Assembly: GCA_036169835.1 (NCBI GenBank)
Contig: JAVHOD010000052.1
Location: forward strand, 1 to 34,603
Reading direction: 5' to 3'
Source of the DNA: Minisyncoccota bacterium
Lineage (GTDB): Bacteria > Patescibacteriota > Minisyncoccia > UBA6257 > MFKM01
DNA length: 34,603 bases
In this document: in pieces, positions 7,089 through 34,603 of the stretch
How the letters are laid out: the number at the start of each line of letters is the position of its first letter
How positions within the stretch are numbered: the first letter of the stretch is position 1
The notes under the pieces: generated by a model
Told to the model about the DNA's origin: nothing
Databases searched by the model: none
What the model saw: the letters and a program-made list of their open reading frames with translations, nothing else
Program-made: the position numbers and the translations under genes

Positions 7089-7817
7089 TTAAAGATTTCT
7101 TAACTCGGTAGGCAGATATTTATTGCATTTTTTTTGAATGGTTTCTAACTGCTTTTGTCCGAAGGGTTTGTATTTTTTATATTTCGGGTTGATTGTCTTT
7201 TCGGGTTTGAATTGCTGAAGAAAATATTTTTTAGCGCCTTTTAATTGTTTGGCTATATCTACAATATCTTTTAGTTGGTGTAGTTTCGGTATGATTGTGG
7301 TTCTGAATTCATAATTAATTCCGGATTTTTTGATTATCTCAATGCTTTTTTTAATTTTTTCTAAATTAACTTTCGTCCCCGCCACTTCGTCATATTTTGA
7401 AAATTGGGAATTGGAAATTGGAAATTGCGCCAAAGGCGCCTTTATGTCCATAGCCACATAATCTATGAGTTTTTCATCAATTAAGTTTTTTAACATTTCG
7501 GGATTTGAGCCGTTGGTGTCAAGCTTCACCGCATATCCAAGTTTTTTTATTTTTTTTATAAAATCCGGTAGGTTTTTATTTATGGTAGGTTCTCCGCCGC
7601 AGATTGCCACGCCATCCAATAGTCCTTTTCTTTGTTTTAAAAAATCAAAAAAATCTTTTTCGGAAATTTTAGCGTGTTTGTTAATATCTTCGGCTAAAAC
7701 CAATTCGGGATTATAGCACCAGGGACAGGAAAAATTACAGCCAACTAAAAAAACCGTGGCCGCGATTTTGCCCGGATAATCAATAAGGGTAAGTTTTTGG
7801 AGACCGCCTATCAGCAC
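7089..7817 (-). CDS. nrdG: Anaerobic ribonucleoside-triphosphate reductase activating protein (radical SAM)
   Basis: 242 aa with the CNFSCPWCYN radical-SAM cluster motif and GGEPT. It follows nrdD with a 1-nt gap. Confidence 0.85.
   Translation of the reverse strand: MLIGGLQKLTLIDYPGKIAATVFLVGCNFSCPWCYNPELVLAEDINKHAKISEKDFFDFLKQRKGLLDGVAICGGEPTINKNLPDFIKKIKKLGYAVKLDTNGSNPEMLKNLIDEKLIDYVAMDIKAPLAQFPISNSQFSKYDEVAGTKVNLEKIKKSIEIIKKSGINYEFRTTIIPKLHQLKDIVDIAKQLKGAKKYFLQQFKPEKTINPKYKKYKPFGQKQLETIQKKCNKYLPTELRNL
7399..7439. repeat. Heptamer tandem repeat plus GC hairpin inside the nrdG CDS
   Basis: On the coding strand, aatttcc aatttcc aattccc aatttt encodes QFPISNSQFS. It is preceded by the hairpin gcgcc-aaa-ggcgc (7427-7439), which encodes APLA. 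Confidence 0.7.
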
Positions 7818-7818
7818 G

Positions 7819-9927
7819 TTATTTGACAGCAGTTGTGGATTTTATTTTAAAAGTTTTTCTCTCTTTAAATTCCTCTTGTTTACCCAAATTCCACTGCGAT
7901 ACCGGTCTTAAATACCCAACAATCCTTGAATAAACCTCGCAGGGCTGTTTGATGGCGCATTTCGGACAGAGGAAATGTTCTCCGGTTAAATAACCGTGAG
8001 TGGGGCAGATGGAGAAGGTGGGCGTTAAAGTGACATAAGGCAGATGAAAATTTTCAAAAACTTTTTTAATCAGATTTTTGGCGGTTTGGACGTCGGAAAT
8101 TTTTTCTCCCAGTAAAAGATGCAGAACAGTGCCGCCGGTGTATTTGGCTTGAATTTCGTCTTGCAGTTTTAAGGCCTCAAAAATATCATCAGTGTGATTA
8201 ACCGGCAATTGGGTAGAGTTGGTATAATAAGGTGTTTTTTTTGTGCCAGCCGAAATAATTTCGGGATATTTTTCTTTGTCTTTTTGTGCCAGCCGATAAG
8301 CGGTTGATTCCGCCGGGGTGGCTTCTAAGTTATATAAATATCTGGTCTCTTCTTGGTATCGGATTAATCGTTCTCTCATGAAATCCAAAACTTCCAAGGT
8401 GAATTTTTTTCCGCTTTTGGAAGATATGTCTTCATTCATAAAATTCAACAGGGCTTCATTCATTCCAACCAAGCCAATAGTGGAAAAATGATTGGCATAA
8501 TAAGCGTTTCTCATTTTTTTTACTCCGGAAAGATAATATTTTGAATAAGGGTACAGACCTTTTTCAATGAAATTTTCAACGGCTTTTCTTTTGATTTCCA
8601 AGCTTTCTTTGGCCAAATCCATGACTTCGGCTAACCTCTTAAAAAATTCTTTTTTGGTTTTAGAAAGATAACCGAGCCGGGGCAAATTGACGGTGACGAC
8701 TCCGATAGAACCGGTCAGGGGATTGGAGCCGAATAAACCGCCGCCCCGCTTGTAAAGCTCGGCATTACTCAAACGCAAACGGCAACACATACTCCGGACG
8801 TCTTCGGGTTTCATATCGGATAGGATGAAATTTGAAAAGTAATTTACTCCATATTTGGCCGTGGCTTCCCACATTGGTTTTAAAGCCGGGCTATCCCAGG
8901 GAAAATCCTTGGTGATATTAATGGTCGGGATGGGGAAAGTAAAAGGCCGGCCCTTGGCGTCTCCTTCCATCAGGACTTCGTAAAATGCCCGGATTAAAAC
9001 GTTCATTTCTTCCTGGAAATCCTTATAAGTTTCCTTTTGCGGTTTGCCGCCGATAATCACTGATTGATTGGCCAGGGCCGCTGACGGGGAGACGTCCAAA
9101 GTGATATTAGTGAAAGGATTCTGGAAACCAACCCGGGTAGGAATGGCGCAATTGAAAATAAATTCTTGGAGTGCCTGTTTGACTTGCTGATAGTTTAAAT
9201 TATCGTATCTGATAAAAGGGGCGAGCAGGGTGTCAAAATTAGAAACGGCTTGAGCGCCGGCTGATTCTCCCTGGAGGGTATAAAAGAAATTAACCAGCTG
9301 GCCCAAAGCGCTTCGGAAATGCTTGGCTGGCCCAGCTTCCACTTTACTCGCCACGCCGCCGAAGCCCTTTACTAAAAGGTCATACAAATCCCAACCGCAA
9401 CAATAAGTGGCTAAAGAATCCAAATTATGAATATGAAGGTCGCCGCTTTCCGCCGCTTGCCGGATTTTTTCGGGATAAATTTTATTAAGCCAATATTTTT
9501 TGGTGACGGCGGAAGTGACGTAATGATTTAACCCCTGGAGAGAATAAGCCATATTGGCGTTTTCCTTGACCTGCCAATCCAATTCGGAAATATACTGGTC
9601 AACCATTTCCACCGCTTCATTAATGGCGGTGGAGGCCTCTCTTATTTTCCGGCGTTGTTCCCGGTACAAGATATATGCCTTGGCGGTTTCGGCAAAGCCC
9701 TCTAAAATTAAAACTTCTTCCACGATGTCCTGGATTTCTTCAACGGTGGGAATTTCCGTTTTTTTGAAACGACGTTGCATTAAAGAGGCGACTTTGTCGG
9801 AAATTTGTTTGGCCTTTTTGCCGTCGCCTTGGTCGCTGGCGGTCAGCGCTTTAACGATGGCTTGCGTGATTTTTTCTTGCTCAAATTTTACTATCCGGCC
9901 GTCTCTCTTTTTGATTTCGTTGGACAT
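7819..9927 (-). CDS. nrdD: Anaerobic ribonucleoside-triphosphate reductase (class III)
   Basis: It has an ATP-cone N-terminus (KRDGRIVKFEQEKI) and the RSMCCRLRL thiyl loop. The C-terminus has a Zn ribbon (CPTHG..CPKC) and the glycyl-radical motif RIVGYLRP. The start is placed at ATG 9927 (MSNEIKK) instead of the ORF-track start at 9990. Confidence 0.9.
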   Translation of the reverse strand: MSNEIKKRDGRIVKFEQEKITQAIVKALTASDQGDGKKAKQISDKVASLMQRRFKKTEIPTVEEIQDIVEEVLILEGFAETAKAYILYREQRRKIREASTAINEAVEMVDQYISELDWQVKENANMAYSLQGLNHYVTSAVTKKYWLNKIYPEKIRQAAESGDLHIHNLDSLATYCCGWDLYDLLVKGFGGVASKVEAGPAKHFRSALGQLVNFFYTLQGESAGAQAVSNFDTLLAPFIRYDNLNYQQVKQALQEFIFNCAIPTRVGFQNPFTNITLDVSPSAALANQSVIIGGKPQKETYKDFQEEMNVLIRAFYEVLMEGDAKGRPFTFPIPTINITKDFPWDSPALKPMWEATAKYGVNYFSNFILSDMKPEDVRSMCCRLRLSNAELYKRGGGLFGSNPLTGSIGVVTVNLPRLGYLSKTKKEFFKRLAEVMDLAKESLEIKRKAVENFIEKGLYPYSKYYLSGVKKMRNAYYANHFSTIGLVGMNEALLNFMNEDISSKSGKKFTLEVLDFMRERLIRYQEETRYLYNLEATPAESTAYRLAQKDKEKYPEIISAGTKKTPYYTNSTQLPVNHTDDIFEALKLQDEIQAKYTGGTVLHLLLGEKISDVQTAKNLIKKVFENFHLPYVTLTPTFSICPTHGYLTGEHFLCPKCAIKQPCEVYSRIVGYLRPVSQWNLGKQEEFKERKTFKIKSTTAVK

Positions 9928-9958
9928 GATTTTTGATAAGTGATTTAGATTTAAAAAT

Positions 9959-9967
9959 ATTCTATCA
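9959..9967 (-). promoter_or_regulatory. Extended -10-like box TGATAGAAT upstream of nrdD
   Basis: The rc of attctatca, about 32 nt upstream of the nrdD ATG. The 9-mer is identical to the one upstream of hisS. Confidence 0.4.
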
Positions 9968-10056
9968 CAGGCAATTACCGAAAACAACAAATTTAATAGC
10001 TGATTTTAATAATATTTTATGCTATAATTATAAAAATATTTGTTCTTTGTAAATAG

Positions 10057-10180
10057 GACTGCCGTCGTCTAACCAGGAAGGACGTCTTCGGAAAAAGCCA
10101 CAAGGGTTTATTGATCGGAGAGGCGCCTCTCTTAAGGCATTTTCAGAAGAAAGAGCGGGTTCAAATCCTTGCCGGCGGTC
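10057..10180 (+). ncRNA. tRNA-like structured element without a canonical anticodon loop, in the leader of the hotdog gene
   Basis: Acceptor-like stem: GACTGCCG 10057-10064 / CGGCGGTC 10173-10180 (8 bp, one G-U). D-arm-like: CGTC 10066-10069 / GACG 10081-10084, with a GG-containing loop. Third stem: TCTTC 10085-10089 / GAAGA 10146-10150. T-arm-like: GCGGG-TTCAAAT-CCTTGC (10155-10172). A 56-nt insert sits where the anticodon loop should be. A TGCTATAAT -10-like box lies at 10020-10028. Confidence 0.45.
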
Positions 10181-10206
10181 TTTAATAAAAATAAGGAGGT
10201 GAAGCG

Positions 10207-10656
10207 ATGGCTAATCTTTTACAAGAAAGAATTTTAGAAAAGGAAGAAATTGAAGAATTTATTCCTCATCGGGGAAAGTGGTTGCTTTTGGATAAAGTTA
10301 CGGAAATCCAGGAAAAATCCATTGTCGCCATAAAAACATTTACCGCGGAAGAATGCGAAGGGCATTTTGGGATAGTCCCCGGACATTTAATTTGTGAAGC
10401 TTTAGCTCAAGCCGGCGCCGTTTTGGTTGGTTACCGTTGTGCTTCTTCTGGAAATAAAAAAATTCCGCTTTTAAGGCATGTTACTGACGCAAAATTTATT
10501 TCTGTGGTGAGACCCGGTGAACGAGTGACGCTTGAAGTGGAATTAATAAATTCAAAAGAGGATGTTTTCTTGTTAAGAGGGATGGCCTTGATCAGCCTGA
10601 AAAAAGTTGTCAGCTGGGAAGGAACGGGCTTTGCTACGGATGAATTGAAATTTTAA
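10207..10656 (+). CDS. FabZ/FabA-like hotdog-fold dehydratase family protein
   Basis: 149 aa with motifs IPHRGKWLLLD and HFGIVPGHLICEALAQ. A strong SD aaggaggtg lies at 10193-10201. Confidence 0.7.
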   Translation: MANLLQERILEKEEIEEFIPHRGKWLLLDKVTEIQEKSIVAIKTFTAEECEGHFGIVPGHLICEALAQAGAVLVGYRCASSGNKKIPLLRHVTDAKFISVVRPGERVTLEVELINSKEDVFLLRGMALISLKKVVSWEGTGFATDELKF

Positions 10657-10662
10657 GATTTT

Positions 10663-10696
10663 GCCCTCCGACATTTTGTCAGAGGGCTTTTTATTT
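10663..10696 (+). terminator. Rho-independent terminator after the hotdog gene
   Basis: gccctccgaca-tttt-gtcagagggc followed by tttttatttt. Confidence 0.8.
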
Positions 10697-10700
10697 TATC

Positions 10701-10729
10701 TTGACGTTTTGATGCTTCAATTTTATTAT
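10701..10729 (+). promoter_or_regulatory. Sigma-70-like promoter for iorAB (TTGACG - 17 nt - TATTAT)
   Basis: -35 TTGACG at 10701-10706 and -10 TATTAT at 10724-10729, with a 17-nt spacer. It lies 22 nt upstream of the iorA ATG. Confidence 0.55.
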
Positions 10730-10751
10730 GCTTTAATAAAAGAACAGTCAT

Positions 10752-12437
10752 ATGCAAAGCGAAATTCTAAAAAATAAAGGCGATAAAGTCGTTTTACTTG
10801 GGAACGAAGGAATTATCCGGGGCGCTTTAGAGGCGGGGGTTCAATTTATTTCTTCTTATCCGGGCACGCCGGCTTCGGAAATCGGCAATATTTTTTATCA
10901 GTTTTTTAAGTCAAAGAAATTACCCAAGGATGTTTATTTTGAGTTTTCCGTAAACGAAAAGATAGCCATGGAGGCGGCGGCTGGGGCATCTTTTTGCGGT
11001 TTGCGGAGTTTGGTGGCGATGAAAAATTTCGGCCTTAATGTCGCTTCTGATTTTCTGTACCCCTTGGTTTATTCCGGGGTTAAAGGGGGTATGGTTATTG
11101 TGGTGGCGGACGACCCTTCCTGCTGGAGTTCGGCTCAATCGGAAGATAACAGCCGGGGCCACGTTATCAAGGCGCATATTCCCACTCTGGAACCGTCAAC
11201 GCCGCAAGAATGCAAGGATTTTACAAAACTGGCTTTTGAGTTTTCGGAAAAATTCGAAATTCCGGTAATGATTCGGGAAACGACCCGGGTGGCTCTTCAG
11301 GCCGGGCTGGTCAAGCTTGATGAAATAAAAGAGGGGAAGAGGAAGGCCAAATTTATAAAAAATCCGCGCCAGTTCGTAACTATGCCCCCCCGGGTTTTGG
11401 AAATGCACCGGGAACTTTTAGAGAAGATTGAAAAAATTAGAGAATTTTCCGAGAAGTCAGAAATTAACAGAATTGTCCCGCTAGGCGGGATCCCGCTAAG
11501 CGGGAAAAATTGTCAGGTGGGCATCATCGCTTCCGGAGTTTGTTATTTATACGCCAAAGAAGCACTTCGGGAATTGAATATTAAATTGCCTGTTTTGAAA
11601 TTAGGATTTTTCTATCCGTTGCCGGATGAAATGATTAAAAATTTCATCAAGAATTTGGATGAAGTTTTGATAATTGAAGAATTGGAGCCATATCTGGAAA
11701 AAGAAATAGAAAGATTAGCCAAAGACGCCAACCCTAAATTGAAAATCAACGGCAAAAATCTTTTGCCTGAAGTCGGGGAAATAAAACCCGAATATGTGAT
11801 TTTGGCTGTTTCAAAGCTTAGCGGAGCGAAGGCCGCTTTTTCTCTTGAAAAGCACCGGAAAGAATTTAAAAATATAAAAGCGCCGGAAAGAAATCCCCGA
11901 TTTTGCCCGGGTTGTCCCTATAATTTCGTTTATTCGGTAATCAAAAAAATAGCTCCAAAGAATGCCATCTTCGGAGGCGAGATCGGCTGTTATATGCTGG
12001 CCCACTATCCGCCCCATGAAATGCAGGATTATCTTTATTGCATGGGTTCGGATATTTCAATAGCTCACGGGATCAAAAAAGCCATTAAGCAATCGGGAGG
12101 CGATGAATTCAACCAGAAAATTATCGCTTTTGTCGGCGACTCTTCTTTTTTTCACGCCAGCATTCCTCCGTTGCTTAACGCCGTTTTCAATAAATCCAAT
12201 CCTTTAATAGTCATTTTGGAGAATAAAACTACGGCCATGACCGGCCATCAGCCGCACCCCGGCATTAAGGGAGATATTAAAATCGAGGAAATCGTTAAGG
12301 CCTGCGGCGTAAAAAATGTGAAAACAGTCGACCCGGTTAAAGTGAGGGAATTCGAGAGCGTCATCAAAGATTTTCTGAAGAAAAAAGAAATCTCGGTGAT
12401 TATCGCCAAACATCCCTGTTTATTCGTAGAAAATTAA
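10752..12437 (+). CDS. iorA: Indolepyruvate/2-oxoacid:ferredoxin oxidoreductase, alpha subunit
   Basis: 561 aa. It has LLGNEGIIRGALEAGV..SSYPGTPASEI at the N-terminus and the TPP-binding region GDSSFFH. It ends at KHPCLFVEN, with no visible C-terminal CxxCxxCxxxCP ferredoxin-type domain. Confidence 0.8.
   Translation: MQSEILKNKGDKVVLLGNEGIIRGALEAGVQFISSYPGTPASEIGNIFYQFFKSKKLPKDVYFEFSVNEKIAMEAAAGASFCGLRSLVAMKNFGLNVASDFLYPLVYSGVKGGMVIVVADDPSCWSSAQSEDNSRGHVIKAHIPTLEPSTPQECKDFTKLAFEFSEKFEIPVMIRETTRVALQAGLVKLDEIKEGKRKAKFIKNPRQFVTMPPRVLEMHRELLEKIEKIREFSEKSEINRIVPLGGIPLSGKNCQVGIIASGVCYLYAKEALRELNIKLPVLKLGFFYPLPDEMIKNFIKNLDEVLIIEELEPYLEKEIERLAKDANPKLKINGKNLLPEVGEIKPEYVILAVSKLSGAKAAFSLEKHRKEFKNIKAPERNPRFCPGCPYNFVYSVIKKIAPKNAIFGGEIGCYMLAHYPPHEMQDYLYCMGSDISIAHGIKKAIKQSGGDEFNQKIIAFVGDSSFFHASIPPLLNAVFNKSNPLIVILENKTTAMTGHQPHPGIKGDIKIEEIVKACGVKNVKTVDPVKVREFESVIKDFLKKKEISVIIAKHPCLFVEN
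11477..11504. repeat. Tandem double hairpin centred on GGGATCCC inside the iorA CDS
   Basis: cccgc-tag-gcggg AT cccgc-taa-gcggg, encoding PLGGIPLSG in-frame. Confidence 0.75.
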
Positions 12438-12439
12438 TC

Positions 12440-13118: not shown

Positions 13119-13263
13119 ACAAGGAAAGGAATTTCCTTGAAGCGAGGCTCGAGGAGCGAGCGGGCATGGTTTTCCGACGAAGTCGGAAAGAGCGAGCGAC
13201 GAAAGCCAGCGAGCGAGCACGCTGGGCGAGCGAGCGGTAGCAAAGGGAAATTCCTTTCCTTGT
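13119..13263. repeat. 18-bp perfect inverted repeat enclosing a GC-rich 109-nt core with reiterated GAGCGAGCG
   Basis: acaaggaaaggaatttcc (13119-13136) is the exact complement of ggaaattcctttccttgt (13246-13263). GAGCGAGCG occurs at 13154-13162, 13190-13198 and 13228-13236, and GAGCGAGC at 13211-13218. A central hairpin ttccgac-gaa-gtcggaa lies at about 13171-13187. Confidence 0.8.
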
Positions 13264-14445: not shown

Positions 14446-16338
14446 TTATTTTTGGAGCGTTTGAGTGAAGACGCGCATTATTGAGCCTGATAAAGATTCC
14501 GGATTAATAGAACCGCTGGGCGGAGGAGTGGTATTTTCGGTTGGCGGCGGAGTTTGAGTTGGCGGGGGAGGAGTATTACCTGTTGGCGGTTGCTGATTTG
14601 CCGGCGGCATCATTCCCTCCGGCGGATTTGTCATTCCCTGCTGGGGTTGTTGAGGTTGTTGTCCTTGTGGTGGCATATTTTGTTGAGTCGGCGGCTGTTG
14701 GTTGCCGGTTGGCGGCTGCTGTTGTGTTCGCATTTGTCCTTGTTGTCTAGGCTGTCCGGGTTGATTAAGTTGACCGGGCTGATTTGGTTGACTTGGTTGA
14801 AAATTTTTACATTCCTCAGGATTAGAAGTGCAGTATTTTTGGCATTCTTCCGGCCCCTTGCAACCGCCTGGACCAGCCTGCTGTGGCATTTGTTGGCCGC
14901 CTGGATTTACAGTCCCTGATCCAGGTTGAAAATTTTTACATTCCTCAGGGGTTTTACACCCGCCCAGCTCTCCTTGTCCGCCAGCCGACATCATACCTCT
15001 GGCGTTTGATCCGCCTTGGTCTTGAGACCCGCTTTGCCCCTGGCCTTGGGTTCCGCCCTGGCCTTGTTGATTTTGTTGATTTGACTGACCAGGTTGATCT
15101 TGGCCTTGCTGATTTTGACCCGGCCTTCTTTCTTGCGTTCCAAATTTTTGAAAACACTGATTGATAGAATCACCAGATTGTCGCCCAATCACAGATCCAG
15201 TTTTCATTTTTTCAACAACATCAGCGCCTAAAGAAGACGATATACAATCCAAAACTTCAGGCGGTATTGAAGAAAAAGAGTCTTTCATTTTTTGCTGGCC
15301 CTCTTCCATCCTTTTTAGATCAGCCTCGGGAATCATTCCATTTTCTTTGCCAAACTGAAAACAAGTTTCTTGATTGTCGGGATTATTGCAAAAAGTATCG
15401 CATTCGTCTTTGTTTTTACAGCCGCCCGGCCCCTTGCCTCCGGTCTTACGAACCATAACCGCGTCTTCTTTGCTCATAAACCCGGCCGCTTCAGCGAAGC
15501 TGGTGCATTCTTCAAAATGAGCGTCTTGCGAGCAATAAGTATTGCATTCCTCTTTGCCTTTACAGGCCGGCGGTTTTATCCCTTGTTTTATAGCCGCCAG
15601 CATTTTTTGGGAGTCGGCTTTTTCTTGTTCGTTCATAAAACCGGCTTCAATGGCGAAATTTGTACAAACTTCCATATTATTAGGTTCGCCGCAGTATTGG
15701 TCGCACGCTTCTTTGCCTTTACAGGGCGGCGGTTTCACGCCTCTTTTTAGAGCCGCCAGCATTTTTTGAGAATCTTCAAGTTCTTTGCCCTGGATAAAAC
15801 CCGCTTCCACGCCGAAAGCCACGCATTTCTCCATATTATTCGGGTCCTCGCAATAAGAATCGCATTCTTTTTTATTTTTACAGGGCGGCGGTTTCACGCC
15901 TCTGGCGATGGCCGCTTGAACTTGTTTGGCTTCCGCCAAATCTTTCGCCGACATTAAATTATTTTTTTCCGCGAAAGAAACGCAATCATTGATGTTGTTG
16001 ATATCGTCGCAATATGTTTCGCAGGCGTCTTTGCCGGCGCAGCCGCCGGGCCCCTTGCTCCCTGACGCCACGAAATTTTTGGCCGTATTGACTTCATCTT
16101 TCGACATCAGGTTGTTTTTTTCGGCGAAATTAAGACAAGCAGTGTTATTGTCCGATTTGTCGCAATAGGTCTTGCAGGATGCCGCGTCTTGGCAATTGCC
16201 AAGCTCCTTTACCGGATATTGGAGATTTGCCGCGCCGGCTGTTTCTTGAGCCAAAGCCACTTTATTAAATAAACCAACCGAGCCGATTATTGCTATCGCG
16301 GAGATGATAATAAAACTTATGAGATATTTTGTTTTCAT
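14446..16338 (-). CDS. Secreted cysteine-repeat protein with a Q/P/G-rich C-terminal half
   Basis: The start is placed at ATG 16338 (MKTKYLISFIIISAIAIIGSVG..., a signal/anchor). It has six about 45-aa modules with C-x5-C-x3-C-x9-C spacing followed by F(A/G)(E/I/V).. helices, plus two partial modules, then long Q/P/G/N low-complexity sequence. Confidence 0.8.
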   Translation of the reverse strand: MKTKYLISFIIISAIAIIGSVGLFNKVALAQETAGAANLQYPVKELGNCQDAASCKTYCDKSDNNTACLNFAEKNNLMSKDEVNTAKNFVASGSKGPGGCAGKDACETYCDDINNINDCVSFAEKNNLMSAKDLAEAKQVQAAIARGVKPPPCKNKKECDSYCEDPNNMEKCVAFGVEAGFIQGKELEDSQKMLAALKRGVKPPPCKGKEACDQYCGEPNNMEVCTNFAIEAGFMNEQEKADSQKMLAAIKQGIKPPACKGKEECNTYCSQDAHFEECTSFAEAAGFMSKEDAVMVRKTGGKGPGGCKNKDECDTFCNNPDNQETCFQFGKENGMIPEADLKRMEEGQQKMKDSFSSIPPEVLDCISSSLGADVVEKMKTGSVIGRQSGDSINQCFQKFGTQERRPGQNQQGQDQPGQSNQQNQQGQGGTQGQGQSGSQDQGGSNARGMMSAGGQGELGGCKTPEECKNFQPGSGTVNPGGQQMPQQAGPGGCKGPEECQKYCTSNPEECKNFQPSQPNQPGQLNQPGQPRQQGQMRTQQQPPTGNQQPPTQQNMPPQGQQPQQPQQGMTNPPEGMMPPANQQPPTGNTPPPPTQTPPPTENTTPPPSGSINPESLSGSIMRVFTQTLQK

Positions 16339-16339
16339 A

Positions 16340-16639
16340 TTATTCAAAAGGATTAGTTTTAACATTTTTAAAGGGGTTAGCTTTGTCGGCCGGATTGACG
16401 TCGGGTTTGCTTTCTAGGGGGTTTGCCCCTACCGAGGGCAGGACGCCTTTGGTGGCGCTTTCGGTTATAGCTCCCGCCGCTTCGCTGGCATTTTCCAATG
16501 CTTGGGTAAAGGCCTGGGACTCGGTTGACTTAGGCGTTGTTTTGGACTTTTTCCAATTACTCCAGTAGAAATAACCGCCGACTCCCAGCCCAATTAATAA
16601 AACGACCGCTATTATTAATAAAAGAGTTTTTTTATTCAT
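16340..16639 (-). CDS. Small membrane-anchored hypothetical protein
   Basis: 99 aa with an N-terminal TM helix (LLLIIAVVLLIGLGVGGYFYW). Its stop lies 1 nt upstream of the Cys-repeat gene start. Confidence 0.6.
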   Translation of the reverse strand: MNKKTLLLIIAVVLLIGLGVGGYFYWSNWKKSKTTPKSTESQAFTQALENASEAAGAITESATKGVLPSVGANPLESKPDVNPADKANPFKNVKTNPFE

Positions 16640-24703: not shown

Positions 24704-24846
24704 GCCAATGTGATTAAAATTTTCAATTACCAATTCTCAATTTTCAATCAATGACTAAATTTTCAATTTCCAAACGTTTGAAAATCAGTTCATTGAAAAT
24801 TTATTAGAAATTAGAAATTGGAAATTAGAAATTCAGACCAAGCCCT
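24704..24846. repeat. AT-rich repeat-laden imperfect palindrome between the adaptor and ATPase genes
   Basis: There are three direct aattttcaat copies on the left. The centre is the palindrome caaacgtttg. On the right are cattgaaaat and four (a/g)gaaatt units (tagaaattagaaattggaaattagaaatt). Confidence 0.7.
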
Positions 24847-26508
24847 TTACCTCCCGAATCCCCCTCCCAAACCTGGTATTCTGACTCCTCCTCCTGCTGA
24901 ACTTTGCGATTGAGTTTTAGTGGCGGCGGTGCTGGCAATAGTTTGAGTTATTATTTGATCGTTTTCTTTAAGGCCATTTATAATTTCTGTATTTGTGTCG
25001 TTTGAAATTCCGGTTTCAACGCTTTGCTGCTGAGGCGCGCCGTTAACTAGAATCTCCACATAATTGGAATTATTCTGTTGTTTAATTGCGGAACTTGAGA
25101 TAACCAGCACATTTTGTTTTGAGTCGGTAATTATGGCGGCACTGACGCTCATCCCGGGTTTTATCCGTTCGTCTTGGGTGTCAAAAATAATTTTTACGTT
25201 ATAAGTGACTACGCCTTGCGATACCGTTCCGATGGCGTCGATTGCCGCCACTTTGCCGGTAAGACTTAACCCATTAATCGCGTCGAAGGTTAGGGTAGCC
25301 TTTTGACCTAATTTAATTTTTGCCGCATCAACTTCATTAAGAGAAATTTCAGCCGTCTGCTGTTTTGTGATAATCGTGGCGACGGTAGTGCCGCTGGAAG
25401 CCGAATCTCCTTTCTCGACATCCACCTCGGCGATTATGCCGTCAAAAGGAGCGTAAACGTAATAATCAACAAGATTTGTTTTGGCGTCTACGAGTGTGCT
25501 TGCCGCTTGTTTTACCGCGGTTTCCTGGTCGGTGATAGTGTAGTCGGTTTCGATCAGAGCTTCTTTATTTGATTGAATCGTATCTTTTGCCGAAAGGAGA
25601 CCCGAAAGATAAGTGTTGGTCGTGCCGGTATAAGAATCAAGATTCGATTGATAAGTAGGAATCGTTGAGGGAATGCTGATATTACTTTTGTTCATAAGAT
25701 CATAAACAAAATCAATATAATTAATGGCTTTTTTAACCGTATCGGCTATAAGTTTTGTCGCCTCGTAGGTTTCGGAAATAAGCGATTCTATGGTTTGAGT
25801 ATCGGAGTTCCGGCTGGTGCTTTTATAATAGTTGAAAACTTCATCATATTTGTCTTTAGCCGTCTGGTAAGAAGAATTAAAGTCATTTTTATACGTAACG
25901 GCTTTTGATCCGCCCTCTAAAGCGCTGACCTGATCTACGTACCAGTCGGTATTTTGTTGATTTTTACTTAAAGTATTGCTGAAAAAAATAGTGTTAAACC
26001 CGTTCATTACGGTTGGCAGATTAAGAAAGGCATTGGAAACGGTATTGAACCCGTCTTCGTAAGATTTACTAAGGTCGTCTTCGGCTTTTTCTTTAATTCC
26101 TCTTAAAATTCCCGCTTCAGTGGTAAGGCCTTGCATTTTTTCAAGTTTGATTTTTGCTTGGTCGTAACTTGTCTGCGCGTTTGCTACTGTTTTTTGGGCG
26201 TCTGCGTCGTCAATTTTAACCAGAAGCGTTCCGCTTTTCACTTCTTGGCCGCTTTTTACTCCCACGTAAACTACGTAGCCCGAGGCTTTCGGTTTGAGGT
26301 CCATTTGGCTTGAAGCGGAGATTTGGCCGCTGCCGGAAACCGAAGAAATAAGCGTGCCTTTTTCCACGGCCGCGGTGACATAGCGGATGCTGTTTTTACT
26401 GCCGCTAAACGTTTTGTGTCCGTAATAACCCCCGACCGCCAACGCGATGATAATCACTCCGGCAATAATTTTATGACGCTTTATCAATTTTAAAATTTTT
26501 TGAAACAT
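24847..26508 (-). CDS. HlyD/MacA-family periplasmic adaptor protein
   Basis: 553 aa with an N-terminal anchor, a long coiled-coil insert between lipoyl-like halves, and a C-terminal beta-barrel region. It sits upstream of the MacB-type genes. Confidence 0.8.
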   Translation of the reverse strand: MFQKILKLIKRHKIIAGVIIIALAVGGYYGHKTFSGSKNSIRYVTAAVEKGTLISSVSGSGQISASSQMDLKPKASGYVVYVGVKSGQEVKSGTLLVKIDDADAQKTVANAQTSYDQAKIKLEKMQGLTTEAGILRGIKEKAEDDLSKSYEDGFNTVSNAFLNLPTVMNGFNTIFFSNTLSKNQQNTDWYVDQVSALEGGSKAVTYKNDFNSSYQTAKDKYDEVFNYYKSTSRNSDTQTIESLISETYEATKLIADTVKKAINYIDFVYDLMNKSNISIPSTIPTYQSNLDSYTGTTNTYLSGLLSAKDTIQSNKEALIETDYTITDQETAVKQAASTLVDAKTNLVDYYVYAPFDGIIAEVDVEKGDSASSGTTVATIITKQQTAEISLNEVDAAKIKLGQKATLTFDAINGLSLTGKVAAIDAIGTVSQGVVTYNVKIIFDTQDERIKPGMSVSAAIITDSKQNVLVISSSAIKQQNNSNYVEILVNGAPQQQSVETGISNDTNTEIINGLKENDQIITQTIASTAATKTQSQSSAGGGVRIPGLGGGFGR

Positions 26509-27493: not shown

Positions 27494-27532
27494 AAAAAAA
27501 CATTCCGACATTCTCAAGAATGTTGGAATGTT
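27494..27532 (-). terminator. Rho-independent terminator/attenuator after the sigma gene
   Basis: The minus strand reads aacattcc-a-acattc-ttga-gaatgt-c-ggaatgtt followed by a T7 run. Confidence 0.75.
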
Positions 27533-27563
27533 TTGATAATCTTTTCGCCGCTCCTATACAGGT

Positions 27564-28157
27564 TTAAGGTTTAATAAAAAGTTTTTTGAGCTGGATAACC
27601 GCGCGCCGGTGCCAACTTTTCACCGTGTTAATGGGTTTTCCCAAAGATTCGGCAATTTCTTCAAAAGTGAGTTGATTGTCGTGATGAAGTTTCAACACTT
27701 GCCGGTAATTTAAAGACAATTGTTCTATTTTTGAATTCAGAGTTTTGATACTGCTGGCGCGTTCGCAAACTTCGGCGGGAAGAGGAGAGGGGTCAATTAG
27801 TTTTTCAGCAAGAAAATTTTTTCCATCTGCGTTTTCTCCGCCAAAGGCGGATCCGCCGTAGGCGGAAAAATCTGAAAACGGCAGGGTTTTTTTCTTCCTG
27901 ATGAAATCAATAGCGGCATTTTTGGCGATGGCAAAAATCCAGGTTTTGAAATTTTTTGTCCGGTCGAATTTCTTGAGGTTGCGCCAGGTTTTGACAAAAA
28001 CTTCTTGGGTTATTTCCTCCGCGTCCTGTTTGTTTCTGACATATTGCCAGACGAAATTATGAATCGGTCTAAGATATTTTTTGACTAAAATCTCAAGAGA
28101 TTTTTTATCCCCTTTAAGATATTGCTTTATGAGTTTTTGGTCATTTTTTTCCGGCAT
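27564..28157 (-). CDS. ECF-type RNA polymerase sigma-70 family factor
   Basis: 197 aa. Region 2 reads EEITQEVFVKTWRNLKKF...WIFAIAKNAAIDFIRKK. The region 4 HTH reads LTFEEIAESLGKPINTVKSWHRRA. Confidence 0.85.
   Translation of the reverse strand: MPEKNDQKLIKQYLKGDKKSLEILVKKYLRPIHNFVWQYVRNKQDAEEITQEVFVKTWRNLKKFDRTKNFKTWIFAIAKNAAIDFIRKKKTLPFSDFSAYGGSAFGGENADGKNFLAEKLIDPSPLPAEVCERASSIKTLNSKIEQLSLNYRQVLKLHHDNQLTFEEIAESLGKPINTVKSWHRRAVIQLKKLFIKP
27838..27865. repeat. Tandem double hairpin centred on GGATCC inside the sigma-factor CDS
   Basis: ccgcc-aaa-ggcgg AT ccgcc-gta-ggcgg. On the coding strand it encodes (S)AYGG(S)AFGG in the region 2-region 4 linker. Confidence 0.75.
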
Positions 28158-28692: not shown

Positions 28693-28710
28693 CCGGGTTT
28701 TTATTTTGAT

Positions 28711-29127: not shown

Positions 29128-29253
29128 TTTTAAATTATATCATAAATACGTTGGTCTGTTGAAAATTGAAACCGGAGAATACCTTATTATATGACTTTTT
29201 GATATAATTATTAAAAGGTCAAATGATAAATTAATAAAATTAAATATAAATTC

Positions 29254-29892: not shown

Positions 29893-29902
29893 ATTAATAA
29901 AA

Positions 29903-29933
29903 AATCAGTCCCGCTATAGCGGGCCTGATTTTT
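29903..29933 (+). terminator. Bidirectional rho-independent terminator between convergent genes
   Basis: aatcag-t-cccgc-tata-gcggg-c-ctgatt, flanked by A5 and T5 runs. The core cccgc-ta..-gcggg is the same hairpin type found in-frame in iorA. Confidence 0.8.
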
Positions 29934-29961
29934 CATATTATCTGTTTTACAGAATTAATTC

Positions 29962-30159: not shown

Positions 30160-30352
30160 GTATGATTGATTATTAGGTTAATTAATGTTTTAAGGTTTTA
30201 TCCTAAAGTTTAGTTTTCCGATGAAGCTCGACGAAATTTCACAGACAACTATCTTAGATAGAATGTTAACATATAAAAACAAATTAGTCAATTAAATGAT
30301 TCTTCGGGATTAATACTTGTAATTTTTTTCATGAGTTTAATGGGGGATCAAT

Positions 30353-31348
30353 TTATTTTTTGGCCGCCAACTGGCCGCAAGCGCCTTCAATGTCTTGGCC
30401 GAAACGATGTCTTTGAGTGACCGCCACGCCCTCTTTCTCTAAAATTTCTTTGAATTTTTTAATTTTTGAAGGAAGGGACGGCTCAAGGATTCCGGTTGGG
30501 TTGCAGGAAATCAGATTAACAAAACAAAGAGGTCTTTTCATCAATTTGGCTAATTTCTTGGCCTGATCTTCGGAATCGTTTGATTTTTTTATCATTATAT
30601 ATTCAAACATCACCCGCCGCCGGGTTTTCTTGATGTAATCGTCAGCCGCGGTTAAAATTTTTCTGATGGGATATTTTTTGTTAATCGGCATCAATTTTGA
30701 CCGGAGTTCGTCATCTGGCGCGTGGAGAGAAATAGCCAAATTTATTTGCAATCCTTCTTCGGCTAATTTTTCAATTCCTTCAACGATGCCAATCGTAGAG
30801 ATTGAAAAATGTCTGGCTCCCAAATTAAACCCCTCTTCATCATTGAGGATTCTAATCGCCGCTATCACATTTTCATAATTTAAAAACGGCTCTCCCATTC
30901 CCATAAAGACAACGTTGGATATCCTCTCTTTGGTATTTTTCAAATAACGGGCAAAAAATAAAACTTGCTCAACAATTTCCCAGACCTCAAGGTTTCTTTT
31001 AAATCCTATTTTTCCGGTGGCGCAGAAAGAACAATTCAAAAGGCAGCCGACCTGCGAAGAAACGCAAATGGTATTTCTTTTGTCTTTATGGCGCATTAAA
31101 ACGGTTTCAATTTTCAGATTATCTTCCAGAGTGATAAGGGCTTTTATCGCATTCCTATCTTTGGAAACTAATGTTTTTGCCGATATTTCAATCGGGCATT
31201 TTTTATTTAATTCTTCTCTCAGGATTAATGGCAGCGCCATCGCTTCCTGCCAGTTTTGGATTAAATCCTTGAAAAGGGCTTTTTGGGCTTGTTCCAAACG
31301 ATATTTCGGTTCTTTCTCAAATAATTTTTTAAATTGAATTAAATCCAT
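30353..31348 (-). CDS. rlmN: 23S rRNA/tRNA A2503-type radical SAM methyltransferase
   Basis: 331 aa with the CLLNCSFCATG radical-SAM motif, GMGEPFLNY, and a C-terminal catalytic Cys (GACGQL). Confidence 0.85.
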   Translation of the reverse strand: MDLIQFKKLFEKEPKYRLEQAQKALFKDLIQNWQEAMALPLILREELNKKCPIEISAKTLVSKDRNAIKALITLEDNLKIETVLMRHKDKRNTICVSSQVGCLLNCSFCATGKIGFKRNLEVWEIVEQVLFFARYLKNTKERISNVVFMGMGEPFLNYENVIAAIRILNDEEGFNLGARHFSISTIGIVEGIEKLAEEGLQINLAISLHAPDDELRSKLMPINKKYPIRKILTAADDYIKKTRRRVMFEYIMIKKSNDSEDQAKKLAKLMKRPLCFVNLISCNPTGILEPSLPSKIKKFKEILEKEGVAVTQRHRFGQDIEGACGQLAAKK

Positions 31349-31447
31349 AATGAGATTCTACTGCGTCCGTCCGAAGTCAACAAGACGAAGGAGGAACAAA
31401 AAATTTTGTTTGCCGACAGACAGACCTGTCTGACCGGTAGGCAGGTG

Positions 31448-31475
31448 CTATAAATTGAAAAATCCCCAATGAAGG
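31448..31475 (-). terminator. Rho-independent terminator after the RRM gene
   Basis: gaaaaatcccc-aatgaa-ggggatttttc; symmetric, with T/A runs on both sides. Confidence 0.8.
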
Positions 31476-31510
31476 GGATTTTTCAAAACGCTATTTAGCG
31501 TATTGCGAGA

Positions 31511-31825
31511 TTATCGTCCGTAGCCGCCGCGGCCTCCGCGATCGCGGTCAAATCCGCCTGTCCGAGGAGCGCGAGGTTCCATCGGGCGAGCTTCATTTAC
31601 CGTGACGGTCCGTCCGTCGAGCTCTTTGCCATTGAACATTTCAATCGCTTTTAAAGCTTCTTCGTCGGATGTCATTTCCACAAAACCGAATCCCTTTGAA
31701 CGTCCAGACATTCTGTCAATGATGACAGTCGCTGTTTCAACGGCTCCGGCTTTAGCAAATGTTTCTTTCAGAGTATCCGCAGTGGTGTCGTATGACAATC
31801 CACCTACATACAATTTTTTTGCCAT
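31511..31825 (-). CDS. RRM-type RNA-binding protein with an RGG tail
   Basis: 104 aa with KLYVGGLSY (RNP2) and KGFGFVEM (RNP1). The C-terminus reads GGFDRDRGGRGGYGR. Confidence 0.9.
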   Translation of the reverse strand: MAKKLYVGGLSYDTTADTLKETFAKAGAVETATVIIDRMSGRSKGFGFVEMTSDEEALKAIEMFNGKELDGRTVTVNEARPMEPRAPRTGGFDRDRGGRGGYGR

Positions 31826-31962
31826 AATATTTTCTTGTATTAAATTAATAATGAGTAAGTCGACCTAACTTCTTTACCTCTTGAACTTGCGCACTATTAC
31901 GTTATACAAGGAAAGAGAACCAGAAACTTACTTTTTCATACTACCTTATAATCTAAAATAAG

Positions 31963-33426
31963 TCAAGAGCGATAATGAAATCTATTTTTTGCCCGTTTGC
32001 CTTGCTTATTTTCCCGTTTGCGCGGGTTGTGAAGTGTTTCCCGACTATCAACTCGGCTTTCTGAAATAATTGTTCCTCCGCATAAACGAATGAACTGTTC
32101 GCGCATTGCGGTAATTTTGTTTTCTGTTATTTTGCCGAATGTGTCCATTGCCTGTTCCGATTGCGCGCGGAATTTTACGTCTTGAGCCAGCGCCTCCGGG
32201 TGTACTTTAAATGTATGTTCGTTCCAGCCGAGAAGATACAGGCCCGAAAGCCGCCTGACGCGCGAGAGCGCGACATAACCCTGCCCGAATTCAAAAACAG
32301 CGCTTAAATCCATCACTGCTTCGTCCAAGCTCATGCCCTGGCTTTTGTGCACTGTAATGGCCCAGGCCAGACGAAGCGGCAGTTGTGTAATCCGCGCGCG
32401 AATTTTTCCGTCTTCTTCTACCGCCCAGCTCATCGGTTCAACTTCAATTATTTTTCCGCTCCGCGTTTCCACAATCGGATTACCGGTGTACTCGCTGAAT
32501 TTTTTAACCAGGCCGAGCGTGCCGTTCATAAACCCTTCTTTCGGGCTGTTTTTTGTGAACATTATTGCCGCTCCGACTTTAAGATAAAGCGTTTCAGGCG
32601 AAAGACAACCTCTTTTAAGCGCGGAGGCAACGGCTTCCGGGCCCTGCGAGGACATATTAAATACCCGCGACACGCCGGAAAGTTTCGCGAGTATTTCGTT
32701 ATTAACGCGATCCACGTCGGCATTATGCGAAAAAAGTTTCAGTATGCCGTTGGGCGCGGCGTGATGCTCGATTTTTCTTGTTTCAATGTGCCGCAAGTGA
32801 TTATCATCAAACACATTGCGCCGCATTGCCGAAAGCAAGGCGAGAAATTTTTTATCGTCCTGCCGGTATTGCTCGGTGAGATAACAAACAGTCGGGTTCG
32901 CTCGTTCCCACGCCGGGGAATCATAAGCGAAACGGCATAACGGCTCTTCAATGAGCGTGGCTGGCGTGTTATTTTTTTCTTCCGTTTTCATAATCGGCGG
33001 CAACTGAAAAAAATCGCCGACCAAGATAATTTGGATGCCGCCGAACGGCTTCGGATTTTGTTTGATTTCGCGACAAACGGCATCAATCATGGAAAAAACA
33101 TTAGGAGAAAGCATGGACACTTCATCTATGATAAGAATTTTTGCGCGCTGAACGCGCTTCGCGACGAGTTTGTTTGACGCGATTTTACTAAGATCTGATT
33201 TACTCAAACTGGTTTTGATTCCGATGCCGCTCCAGGAGTGGATTGTTATCCCGCCAATGTGCGTCGCGGCAATGCCAGTTGAAGCCGTGATTGCCGGCTC
33301 AATGCCATGAGCGCGCAAATATTCCACGTACTCATTAATAGTATGCGTTTTGCCGGACCCCGGTTCGCCGGTTAAAAAAATATTCGCGCCGGTTTTCAAT
33401 ATTAATAGCGCTTGAGTTTGGGTCAT
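31963..33426 (-). CDS. Pif1/RecD-family (SF1B) ATP-dependent DNA helicase
   Basis: 487 aa with Walker A GEPGSGKTH and Walker B ILIIDEVSM, plus VGDFFQLPPI and the C-terminal ITVHKSQGMSLD motif. The tail is basic. Confidence 0.85.
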   Translation of the reverse strand: MTQTQALLILKTGANIFLTGEPGSGKTHTINEYVEYLRAHGIEPAITASTGIAATHIGGITIHSWSGIGIKTSLSKSDLSKIASNKLVAKRVQRAKILIIDEVSMLSPNVFSMIDAVCREIKQNPKPFGGIQIILVGDFFQLPPIMKTEEKNNTPATLIEEPLCRFAYDSPAWERANPTVCYLTEQYRQDDKKFLALLSAMRRNVFDDNHLRHIETRKIEHHAAPNGILKLFSHNADVDRVNNEILAKLSGVSRVFNMSSQGPEAVASALKRGCLSPETLYLKVGAAIMFTKNSPKEGFMNGTLGLVKKFSEYTGNPIVETRSGKIIEVEPMSWAVEEDGKIRARITQLPLRLAWAITVHKSQGMSLDEAVMDLSAVFEFGQGYVALSRVRRLSGLYLLGWNEHTFKVHPEALAQDVKFRAQSEQAMDTFGKITENKITAMREQFIRLCGGTIISESRVDSRETLHNPRKRENKQGKRAKNRFHYRS

Positions 33427-33499
33427 ATAAATTTTATCTGAACTATTCGCTTATTTTAGAGCATTATCGCAGAAAAATATACGCGAAAAAGTTTATTTA

Positions 33500-33566
33500 T
33501 CCCGATGGCGAAGTCCCGACGAAGTCGCGGATTCGCGATATAGTCGGAACCATCGTGGATCCTCGA
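33500..33566. repeat. GC-rich compound palindromic element (intergenic copy A)
   Basis: The sequence is tcccgatggc gaagtcccgacgaagtcgcggattcgcgat atagtcggaa ccatcgtggatcctcga. tcgcggattcgcgat pairs with atcgtggatcctcga (14 of 15 positions including wobbles). It shares its ends with copy B at 34528-34570. Confidence 0.75.
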
Positions 33567-33571
33567 TAAAT

Positions 33572-34603
33572 TTAATTCTTAAATTTATCGGGACAGCTTT
33601 TTCCGGCAATATAGCCGGTGCTCCAGCACATTTGCAGATTAAAGCCGCCGGTTTTTCCGTCAACATCAATAATTTCGCCCGCGAAAAACAGGTTATCAAT
33701 TATTTTTGATTGCATTGTTTTATGATCTATCTCCTTGAGAGATATTCCTCCGCTTGTAATTTTAGCTTCATCAAAACCCAAAATACTTTCTGCGGTAACT
33801 TCAAGATTTTTGAAAGTTTTTACTATTATTTTTTTCTCCGGGTTTGACAAGTTATTTGTCATTTTATTTTTATTTACGCCCGCGATGTTTAGTAAAACCT
33901 CGGCTAATTTTTCGGGCACGAAATCCGATAATGTGTTTTTAATATTTTTTTTCGGATATCTCTTGGAAGTTTCTTCGAGTTTTTTCCCAAGCTCTTCTTG
34001 GGTTAGCGACGGAAAAAAATCAAGGCCTATTTTTACGCCGTCTTTTTCCAACAGTTCTCTCACTTTGCCGCTGATGTTTAATACAGCCGGCCCGCTTATG
34101 CCAAAATGAGTAAACAGAATTTCTCCTTCTTCTGGAAATTGCTTTTTATTATCTTTTAAGATATTTATCTTAACGTCTTTTAAGCTTATTCCCTGTAGAT
34201 TTTTAACCCATTCTTCTTTCAATCTTATCGGAGACAAAGCGGGCATCGGTTTTATGATGGTATGCCCTAATTTTTCGGCCAATTTATAGCCCGAACCGTC
34301 AGAACCGGTTAAATGATAAGATTTCCCGCCGGTACAAAATATATATTTTTCAGCTGTAATTTCTCCGTTTTTTAAAATAAGCTTGGTGATTTTTTTATCT
34401 ACATGGCGAACAGACGCAACTTCAGAATTGAAAAGTATGTGCACTTTATTTTTTGCCAAATATTTATTTAACGCTTCCAAAACTTTTTCCGAGTCATCGC
34501 TTTTCGGGAAAACTCTTTTGCCGCTTTTCCCGATGGCTTTGCCATCGTGGATCCTCGACTCCGTCGGGACAATTTTAGTTTTTACTCCCAGTTTTTCAAA
34601 AAA
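33572..34603 (-). CDS. HI0933/aminoacetone-oxidase-family NAD(P)/FAD-dependent flavoprotein, C-terminal about 340 aa (5' end outside window)
   Basis: The frame is open from 34603 (FFEKLGVKTK...GKRVFPKSDDSEKVLEALNKYL...) to the stop at 33572. FFAGEIIDVDGKTGGFNLQMCWSTGYIAG is the typical family C-terminus. The ORF-track entry starts at an internal TTG. Confidence 0.85.
   Translation of the reverse strand, partial: FFEKLGVKTKIVPTESRIHDGKAIGKSGKRVFPKSDDSEKVLEALNKYLAKNKVHILFNSEVASVRHVDKKITKLILKNGEITAEKYIFCTGGKSYHLTGSDGSGYKLAEKLGHTIIKPMPALSPIRLKEEWVKNLQGISLKDVKINILKDNKKQFPEEGEILFTHFGISGPAVLNISGKVRELLEKDGVKIGLDFFPSLTQEELGKKLEETSKRYPKKNIKNTLSDFVPEKLAEVLLNIAGVNKNKMTNNLSNPEKKIIVKTFKNLEVTAESILGFDEAKITSGGISLKEIDHKTMQSKIIDNLFFAGEIIDVDGKTGGFNLQMCWSTGYIAGKSCPDKFKN
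34528..34570. repeat. GC-rich palindromic element copy B, in-frame inside the flavoprotein CDS
   Basis: tcccgatggc-tttg-ccatcgtggatcctcga-ctccgtcgggac. On the coding strand it encodes IVPTESRIHDGKAIG between KTK and KSGKRVFP. Confidence 0.7.

Follow-up and report, generated by a model that had tools for sequence, protein, structure and literature searches.

How do four unrelated genes of a streamlined bacterium come to carry, each within its reading frame, a short palindrome or repeat? The question is raised by contig JAVHOD010000052.1 of a Minisyncoccota bacterium (GenBank assembly GCA_036169835.1), which was analyzed over its full length of 34,603 nt and is referred to below as the window. 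An original prediction made from the sequence alone had pointed to such features in nrdG, iorA, the gene of an extracytoplasmic function (ECF) sigma factor and the gene of an HI0933-like flavoprotein, and had proposed an active or recently active repeat-propagation process. Here, the four features were compared with homologs, the modules were searched for in genome and metagenome collections, and their flanks, codon phases and relatives in spacers were analyzed. All four turned out to be real insertions, and the same 30-nt modules were found at at least 120 loci in each of two public collections, in genes as well as in spacers, which bears out a propagation process. We lean towards viewing the in-frame features as copies of a selfish kind of repeat, short and structured and similar to repetitive extragenic palindromes (REPs) and Rickettsia palindromic elements (RPEs), which is filtered by selection on the peptide.

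In-frame insertions in four genes

Relative to homologs, iorA and the sigma factor gene are longer by 30 nt each, the flavoprotein gene by 42 nt and nrdG by 21 to 36 nt, every added length being a multiple of 3. The four coding features (Table 1) are lineage-specific in-frame insertions at indel hot spots. The 10-aa insert of the sigma factor, SAYGGSAFGG at residues 97–106, is missing in the closest homolog (P0122, 76% identity) and in most others. It is located in the linker between sigma2 and sigma4, and AlphaFold models it as disordered, with a predicted local distance difference test (pLDDT) value below 50 over residues 92–126. The filled site reads GAT TTT[30 nt]GAA AAC and the empty site in the closest relative (L131) GAT TTC^GAA AAT; in this one ortholog pair, the difference is exactly 30 nt and there is no target duplication. 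The 14-aa insert of the flavoprotein (VPTESRIHDGKAIG) is present in 0 of 38 aligned homologs, including one with 62% identity and identical flanks (P0432), and its DNA folds into two adjacent hairpins (z-score −3.5).

Across Patescibacteria, indels are concentrated at the hypervariable sites of IorA and NrdG, which hold anything from no insert to ~50 residues of hairpin- or heptamer-derived peptide (e.g. RGRVSA, GRDPTSA, KLEIRNWKL, KSQIPNSKFQI). The iorA module lies between the POR_N and TPP_C domains, is bordered by the heptamer-like sequences AGAATTG and AAAATTG, and is translated in phase 1 into (V)PLGGIPLSG(K). In NrdG, the insert site is a variable loop within the radical-SAM domain; homologs at 88–90% identity either lack the insert of the window or carry a different one, and a homolog at 69% identity (L128) has almost the same insert DNA. 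The peptide pattern AP-x-G-A/L is also seen in many NrdG homologs, and NrdG orthologs vary in length by 7 aa, equal to 3 heptamer units. As a separate observation, the IorA homolog P0097 has a second hairpin-like low-complexity insert (SSSARASAFGRRSRLRPTKSAG, residues ~437–458) in the TPP-binding domain, at a site different from that in the window.

The iorA, sigma factor and flavoprotein modules share one architecture, namely two abutting hairpins that are each closed by TCC...GGA. GGATCC arises in all three because the GGA end of one unit meets the TCC start of the next. This hexamer had been noted in three of the four elements, which is correct, and as the center of two of them (iorA and sigma factor); in fact, all three are centered on it. 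The nrdG insert differs from the other three in being an A/T-rich 7-nt tandem array with a single hairpin; on the + strand, the array reads (TTGGAAA)x4.4 at 7397–7427 and abuts the hairpin at 7427–7439. The four cases are not one element: GC-rich double-hairpin modules with at least three stem types stand beside a separate class of A/T-rich heptamer arrays.

GC-rich triloop hairpins are in excess over shuffled controls at the scale of the window, where 7 with a stem of at least 6 were counted; dinucleotide shuffling (200 runs) gave 2.1 ± 1.3 and never more than 6. With up to one mismatch allowed, the hairpin core CCGACGAAGTCG is matched 4 times in the window vs 0.1 expected; one of these, a hairpin-like match in nrdD (9789–9800), was set aside as probably incidental coding sequence.

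Table 1. Coordinates of inserted modules and structured spacer elements in the window
Feature	Position	Strand	Context and composition
TCCCGC-family 30-nt double hairpin	11476–11505	+	iorA; TCCCGC-TAG-GCGGGA + TCCCGC-TAA-GCGGGA
Canonical TCCGCC-family 30-nt double hairpin	27837–27866	-	ECF sigma factor; TCCGCC-AAA-GGCGGA + TCCGCC-GTA-GGCGGA
42-nt double hairpin	34528–34569	-	HI0933-like flavoprotein; TCCCGAC-GGA-GTCGAGGA + TCCACGATGGC-AAA-GCCATCGGGA
nrdG insert LAQFPISNSQFS	7398–7433	-	A/T-rich heptamer array, (AATTTCC)n on coding strand, after hairpin
Hairpin GCGCC-AAA-GGCGC	7427–7439	-	nrdG; arm 1 formed by conserved Ala-Pro codons of DIKAP motif, arm 2 in insert
Flavoprotein-module relative	33500–33593	-	non-coding/3′-end; same outer stems and GGATCC joint; fold z-score −4.5
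Heptamer-array spacer	24704–24846		143 nt, HlyD-like/ABC ATPase genes; two mutually inverted arrays, 24718–24748 and 24803–24833
Long hairpin	13119–13263		145 nt, between convergent iorB and SIMPL genes; z-score −3.5
Terminator-like hairpin	29900–29933		AAAAATCAG-T-CCCGC-TATA-GCGGG-C-CTGATTTTT; terminator-like on both strands

Occurrence in other genomes and metagenomes

For detection of further copies, (TCCGCC-N3-GGCGGA)x2 was searched in one genome per GTDB species and (TCCCGC-N3-GCGGGA)x2 in metagenomes. Each family was found at at least 120 loci; taken together, the unrelated loci number more than 240 and come from more than 10 phyla. All genome-collection matches listed are metagenome-assembled genomes (MAGs). 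By record title, the TCCGCC matches listed comprise 63 Patescibacteria, 12 Planctomycetes-Verrucomicrobia-Chlamydiae (PVC), 11 ‘Gammaproteobacteria’, 10 Omnitrophota, 5 Ignavibacteria/Bacteroidota, 2 Chloroflexota, 2 Firmicutes, 4 lone records of other groups and 11 unclassified ‘bacterium’. The TCCGCC loci are located on contigs of up to 1.6 Mb, and their GC content ranges from 0.33 to 0.70. A phage origin was ruled out, as 2.9 million viral contigs gave only 2 and 0 matches for the modules.

The host genes are unrelated and often essential, e.g. those for DnaG, class II aminoacyl-tRNA synthetases (AspRS/AsnRS-type), PheT, UvrB, Mfd, CysRS, E2 acyltransferase, PolX and Mur ligases. Copies also occur in DNA without any long open reading frame (ORF) over them. 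Several loci have two or three copies within 8 kb, in some cases within duplicated genes or larger repeated segments, and decayed copies add roughly one more per 60 kb in carrier genomes. In 1.7 Mb of loci, the only GGATCC-centered double hairpins were those of the TCCGCC and TCCCGC families and their single-base variants, and the two families, both present in the window, did not occur together in any of these loci. Literature searches on Patescibacteria and the candidate phyla radiation (CPR) yielded no prior description of such modules.

Two further arrangements were seen among the loci. A Campbellbacteria PheT (L020:4444–6939) has two separate TCCGCC modules as well as an NlpC/P60 domain between B3/4 and B5. 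Also, modules can be nested in a larger palindromic repeat such as CCCCCTTT[module]GACAAGGGGG (L125:6186 and 7179; L193:3760 and 3913), and two copies of such a segment can lie within 1 kb of each other and agree in their rare loop sequences.

Structure of the modules and their flanks

The TCCGCC family follows the consensus (T)TT-TCCGCC-RRA-GGCGGA-TCCGCC-TYY-GGCGGA-AA(A). The stems are invariant and the loops variable, and the flank sequence is random beyond ±3 nt. The near flanks read TTT and AAA, with a preference for TTY^RAA junctions (about 240 copies). Left and right flank preferences are independent, without co-variation beyond the T and A biases, and palindromic target sites were therefore ruled out. 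The whole 30-mer is a perfect palindrome in 24 of 124 copies, the RRA and TYY loops usually not being complementary, so that perfect palindromy does not define the module. Across stem families, the TCC/GGA ends and the GATC center are invariant. Degenerate copies are few; among them, 4 stem pairs are compensated, which indicates that the stems are maintained.

Copies were found as dimers (130) and as single units (20), most of the latter being the remaining half of a decayed dimer, with 0 trimers or longer runs. Slippage of the 15-nt unit was ruled out by this restriction to dimers. A 7-bp target duplication was rejected as well, because the sigma empty/filled pair has none and flanking 7-mers are almost always pieces of longer arrays. 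An intrinsic-terminator role of the coding modules was discarded on account of their polarity, which is reversed on both strands (T-run 5′, A-run 3′); a GC-rich hairpin followed by a T-run was found only at the spacer hairpin 29900–29933.

Selection on genic copies

All four insertions in the window had been described as keeping the frame. This holds, and it has two components: the frame is kept because the module length is 3n (30 nt, or 42 nt for the flavoprotein module), and the codon phase that survives is set by strong selection on the peptide. The TCCGCC copies deep in long ORFs (n = 47) are distributed 43:2:2 by phase, and the 43 read Ser-Ala-x-Gly-Gly twice. TTY^RAA candidate sites in the same ORFs are distributed 101:28:98; a target-phase bias behind the codon-phase bias was thus ruled out, as these sites are as common in phase 0 as in phase 2. 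The TCCCGC family has the same trend in weaker form (25:8:6), and the iorA copy of the window is in a minority phase, giving (V)PxxGIPxxG(K). Module copies are located in gene interiors less often than random positions (37% vs 58%; in a second comparison 32% vs 47%) and are enriched where no long ORF covers them, while about a third still lie deep inside long ORFs.

Recurrent occupancy and turnover

Filled sigma alleles appear at at least 6 separate places on a neighbor-joining tree, each beside empty relatives. In sigma orthologs at 55–61% identity, the insert DNA is almost identical and the adjoining codons differ at synonymous sites. Since the insert DNA of both sigma and nrdG is nearly identical amid diverged flanks, conservation acts on the nucleotide level and not on the protein level. 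What occupies one and the same IorA site varies: in the window it is the TCCCGC dimer, in L133 a TCCGCC dimer set in heptamers, in L132 a nested hairpin of 17 bp whose core is TCCGCC, and in other lineages nothing but heptamers. Gains and losses of inserts become visible at about 70–90% protein identity. Within protein clusters of at least 90% identity, the inserts are fixed and the length differences seen are C-terminal. Turnover therefore proceeds on a between-species and not on a strain scale, and the suggestion of recently active repeats was not upheld.

Heptamer arrays

A quarter (25%) of the TCCCGC copies are in phase inside A/T-rich 7-nt tandem arrays, compared with about 7% of the TCCGCC copies. 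The array units are locus-specific, e.g. GGAAATT, CAAATTC or AAAAGTC, and arrays hosting modules are nearly always extended, seldom a bare 7+7 repeat. In the window, Tandem Repeats Finder (TRF) detected arrays at 7397–7427, 24718–24748 and 24803–24833. Only the heptamer class behaves as a simple tandem repeat; the 15-nt hairpin unit does not, as it forms dimers only. At one locus (L233, downstream of 351), a TCCCGC module that is set in AATATCC heptamers is directly followed by a (CCTAAAA)n array with 6 units or more.

Spacer relatives and further features of the window

Close relatives in spacers had been proposed for all four coding elements. For the flavoprotein module, this is strongly supported: the regions 33500–33593 and 34528–34569 have identical outer stems (TCCCGA/TCGAGGATCCACGATGG/CCATCGGGA), which points to copy events inside the genome. 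The region 33500–33593 consists of two adjacent hairpins, each with a loop enlarged by nested hairpins, and its unit A (33560–33593) takes in the final codons of the flavoprotein gene along with its stop codon. The nrdG array is 83% complementary and 75% identical to 24718–24758 and 24799–24842, but array and spacer belong to one class of heptamer repeats. The spacer that harbors these has an equivalent of about 30 nt in the closest relative, and its fold is not exceptional (z-score −1.6). The iorA unit and the hairpin 29900–29933 have in common only a 5-bp CCCGC/GCGGG stem, a weak similarity, and the sigma module has no spacer twin within the window. The HlyD-like protein next to the heptamer spacer ends in a Gly-rich tail (SSAGGGVRIPGLGGGFGR, 24847–24900).

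The hairpin at 13119–13263 has a perfect 17-bp outer stem and a (GAGC)n-rich interior, and it has no Rfam match. It contains a single TCCGAC-GAA-GTCGGA unit (13173–13187), the CCGACGAAGTCG core of which is also present at 33516 and, with one mismatch, at 34556.

The window is a stretch of housekeeping genes, the best protein matches of which are named as Patescibacteria of Parcubacteria/Paceibacterota-like type. Its genes include lepB, hisS, ftsA, ftsZ, nrdDG, iorAB, a P-type ATPase, a PIF1 helicase, the HI0933-like flavoprotein and an ECF sigma-MacAB-type operon. Neither a transposase nor a restriction-modification gene was found in its 34.6 kb, and it gave 0 Rfam matches at gathering threshold, 0 tRNAs and 0 tmRNAs. 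A motif of ~20 nt, GGAGTTGAGTTA(A)CTGGG, has four copies in both orientations (188–237, 356–387, 4715–4746, 4923–4972) in the spacers upstream of lepB and on both sides of the ftsA-ftsZ junction, and two of the copies are 97% complementary to each other along 32 nt. This motif could be an operator or another small repeat. The - strand ORF 14446–16365 (639 aa) has no Pfam match and is made up of tandem repeats of 159 nt (53 aa; TRF period 159) in which Cys-rich motifs come back. Three near-perfect A/T-rich spacer hairpins with stems of 13–17 bp (1010–1045, 27497–27534, 31455–31486) are probably terminators and unrelated in sequence to the GC modules.

Origin of the modules

Copies of short selfish repeats, filtered by selection, are the explanation that we favor with a modest degree of confidence; in this reading, such repeats are common among Patescibacteria as well as in a number of other uncultivated phyla. 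The main class consists of two head-to-tail units of 5′-TCC, a 3–8 nt stem, a 3-nt loop, the complementary stem and GGA-3′, with the stems TCCGCC/GGCGGA or TCCCGC/GCGGGA in the canonical 30-nt forms. In one empty/filled ortholog pair, the module is seen to be added as an exact unit without target-site duplication. Any 3n insertion keeps the frame, and selection would then purge most genic copies, leaving survivors in disordered linkers or loops and mostly in the phase that reads Ser-Ala-x-Gly-Gly twice. The modules would be without function for the host proteins. Copying may be performed in trans by a mechanism that acts on single-strand DNA and recognizes hairpins, as in REP/RAYT or IS200/IS605; such hairpin-specific copying is our leading guess. 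Heptamer arrays, which form a second class of inserts (nrdG, spacer 24704–24846), may be landing pads or by-products.

Several points weigh against this explanation. No transposase or other candidate enzyme is present in the window, and none was sought genome-wide. We know of no element anywhere near as short as 30 bp that has been shown to transpose, and 30 bp leaves no space for the guide and cleavage sequences of IS200/IS605. The flank preference is two-sided, T-rich and A-rich, in contrast to the one-sided target of IS200/IS605. No filled/empty polymorphism was seen within populations. The link between modules and heptamer arrays has no explanation if the modules are selfish repeats. Finally, one arm of the nrdG hairpin consists of conserved host codons and nested ‘Russian-doll’ hairpins exist, two findings that local replication errors fit at least as well as transposition does.

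A bolder version can be put forward tentatively, as a possibility that we hold to be less probable than the selfish-repeat explanation in its general form. The 30-bp modules might be the smallest autonomous-looking mobile DNA, a cross-phylum family that is pasted precisely and without target duplication by novel hairpin-specific machinery, with heptamer arrays as its landing pads or by-products, and that routinely remodels loops of essential proteins in reduced genomes.

That no mobile element is involved at all is an alternative that we consider unlikely. Replication errors at A/T-rich sites and existing palindromes, i.e. slippage as well as template switching within a strand or between copies, would generate and spread the inserts, with a copy elsewhere as template. 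Such an origin fits the nrdG hairpin, in which the Ala-Pro arm is old and arm 2 is new, as well as hairpins nested in hairpin loops. Heptamer arrays are classic slippage products, with orthologs differing by 7 aa (3 units), and a quarter of the TCCCGC modules lie in phase within arrays of this kind, nearly all of them extended. The lack of a target duplication and of a transposase in the window would be expected, and compensated stems fit hairpin-templated correction. However, the 24 stem bases are identical at over 240 unrelated loci from more than 10 phyla, which local generation alone cannot bring about, a slipping 15-nt unit would be present in 1, 2, 3 and more copies where only dimers are found, and microhomology is restricted to about 3 nt at most sites. 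Template switching between copies without a transposase is a serious rival, and both the heptamer arrays and the nested hairpins may well be due to it.

Functional cis-elements under selection are a clearly less probable explanation. The modules would then serve as a site for a dimeric protein, as a GGATCC/GATC methylation or restriction site, or as a structure in the mRNA by which ribosomes are slowed where two domains meet, and their spread would reflect recruitment. The invariant ends and GATC center across stem families, the maintained stems with some compensatory changes, and the position of the iorA and sigma inserts at a domain boundary or linker and of the nrdG insert in a variable radical-SAM loop are all compatible with a function. 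Hosts and positions are arbitrary, however, close relatives lack the module, and copies are underrepresented in genes. With a T-run upstream and an A-run downstream, the flanks make no terminator on either strand. A link between GGATCC and restriction-modification, as previously suggested, found no support in the window: the site is neither enriched nor depleted (5 observed vs 7.9 ± 2.6 in shuffles), 4 of the 5 sites are unit joints, and no restriction-modification gene is present.

It is very improbable that the coding copies are conserved flexible Gly/Ser/Ala linkers with incidental palindromy, an outcome that the original prediction had itself allowed for. The peptides are indeed rich in small residues and located in linkers, and an SAxGGSAxGG insert recurs at one sigma position. 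Against this, each of the three phases is used to read the same DNA, which is also present outside genes, synonymous positions are fixed while neighboring codons drift, the closest homologs lack the insert, and its carriers are scattered over the tree. An artefact of sequencing or assembly, e.g. a linker-like palindrome from library preparation or assembly, can practically be dismissed, for although all genome-collection matches listed are MAGs and the module center resembles BamHI linker sequences, the modules occur in independent projects and contig kinds including multi-hundred-kb and Mb-scale ones, deep genic copies are almost all in the codon phase of the benign peptide, and the same codon is filled in orthologs from different studies with diverged loops.

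Implications

If the modules are selfish repeats, they would account for some of the puzzling variation in length, and some of the low-complexity loops, of otherwise conserved CPR proteins, and even streamlined genomes would bear selfish DNA within essential genes. A 30-bp palindrome inserted without target duplication in more than 10 phyla would call for a mobilizing or copying mechanism that is not yet described, and would set a lower size limit for a propagating element. In annotation and phylogenetics, the inserts give rise to false indels and spurious small ORFs in MAGs as well as to odd peptides (SAxGGSAxGG, SRxAGSRxAG, NFQFPIS-like). The exact module signature should make a census, phylogenetic profiling and proteomic checks straightforward.

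Comparison with known repeat systems

IS200/IS605 elements insert 3′ of a one-sided tetra- or pentanucleotide, and recognition of their cleavage sites needs sequence outside the hairpin foot. The modules resemble them in having hairpins at both ends, no terminal inverted repeats beyond these, no target duplication and a short preferred site, and differ in that the module hairpins directly adjoin the flanks, with a preference on either side. In yeast mitochondria, mobile GC clusters are GC-rich hairpins of 30–50 nt in an A/T-rich organellar genome, some of which are skipped in translation. Like the modules, they are scattered GC-rich palindromic hairpins that occasionally lie in coding sequence; unlike them, they are organellar, and nothing indicates translational skipping of modules. 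The modules do not conform to miniature transposable elements with inverted repeats (MITEs), as the empty/filled pair has no target-site duplication, their length is 30–42 nt compared with about 50–500 bp, and no parent element was seen. PARCEL elements are 25-residue coding units that form long tandem tracts in surface proteins of unknown function (PMC2996958). Shared traits are coding dyad symmetry, similar peptides on either strand, and a punctate cross-clade distribution suggesting horizontal spread, whereas the modules are single 10-residue insertions in housekeeping enzymes.

The closest described cases are in-frame RPEs and intragenic REP dimers. RPEs are in-frame palindromic repeats in unrelated housekeeping genes and also in non-coding DNA, and their peptide is judged compatible with the protein structure (review, PMC10969869). 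The modules are likewise palindromic, in frame in unrelated genes and present in non-coding DNA; RPEs, however, measure about 100–150 bp, have a conserved peptide specific to each family and are confined to Rickettsia, whereas the modules have 30–42 bp, encode 10–14 residues and cross phyla. Intragenic REPs with GTAG or CGTC tags are 20–40 bp GC-rich palindromes, often paired and mostly extragenic; copies within genes lengthen the protein by a few to about 30 amino acids and leave the gene active, and REPs are regarded as mobile DNA of a non-autonomous kind (Di Nocera et al. 2013, PMC3733652). The modules of both families differ from REPs in lacking a GTAG or CGTC tag at either end, their ends being TCC...GGA, and in a dimer that is directly abutted at GGATCC without a linker and built from units of only 15 nt. 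Their sequence is common to more than 10 phyla, unlike the species-specific REPs, about a third of them lie deep inside genes, and no RAYT is linked to them in the 34.6-kb window searched. With their 15-nt units and 30-nt modules, they nevertheless correspond to palindromes of 20–40 bp that are repeated per genome, and they share with REPs that they are short, GC-rich and paired, occur in genes and spacers, and add a peptide without inactivation.

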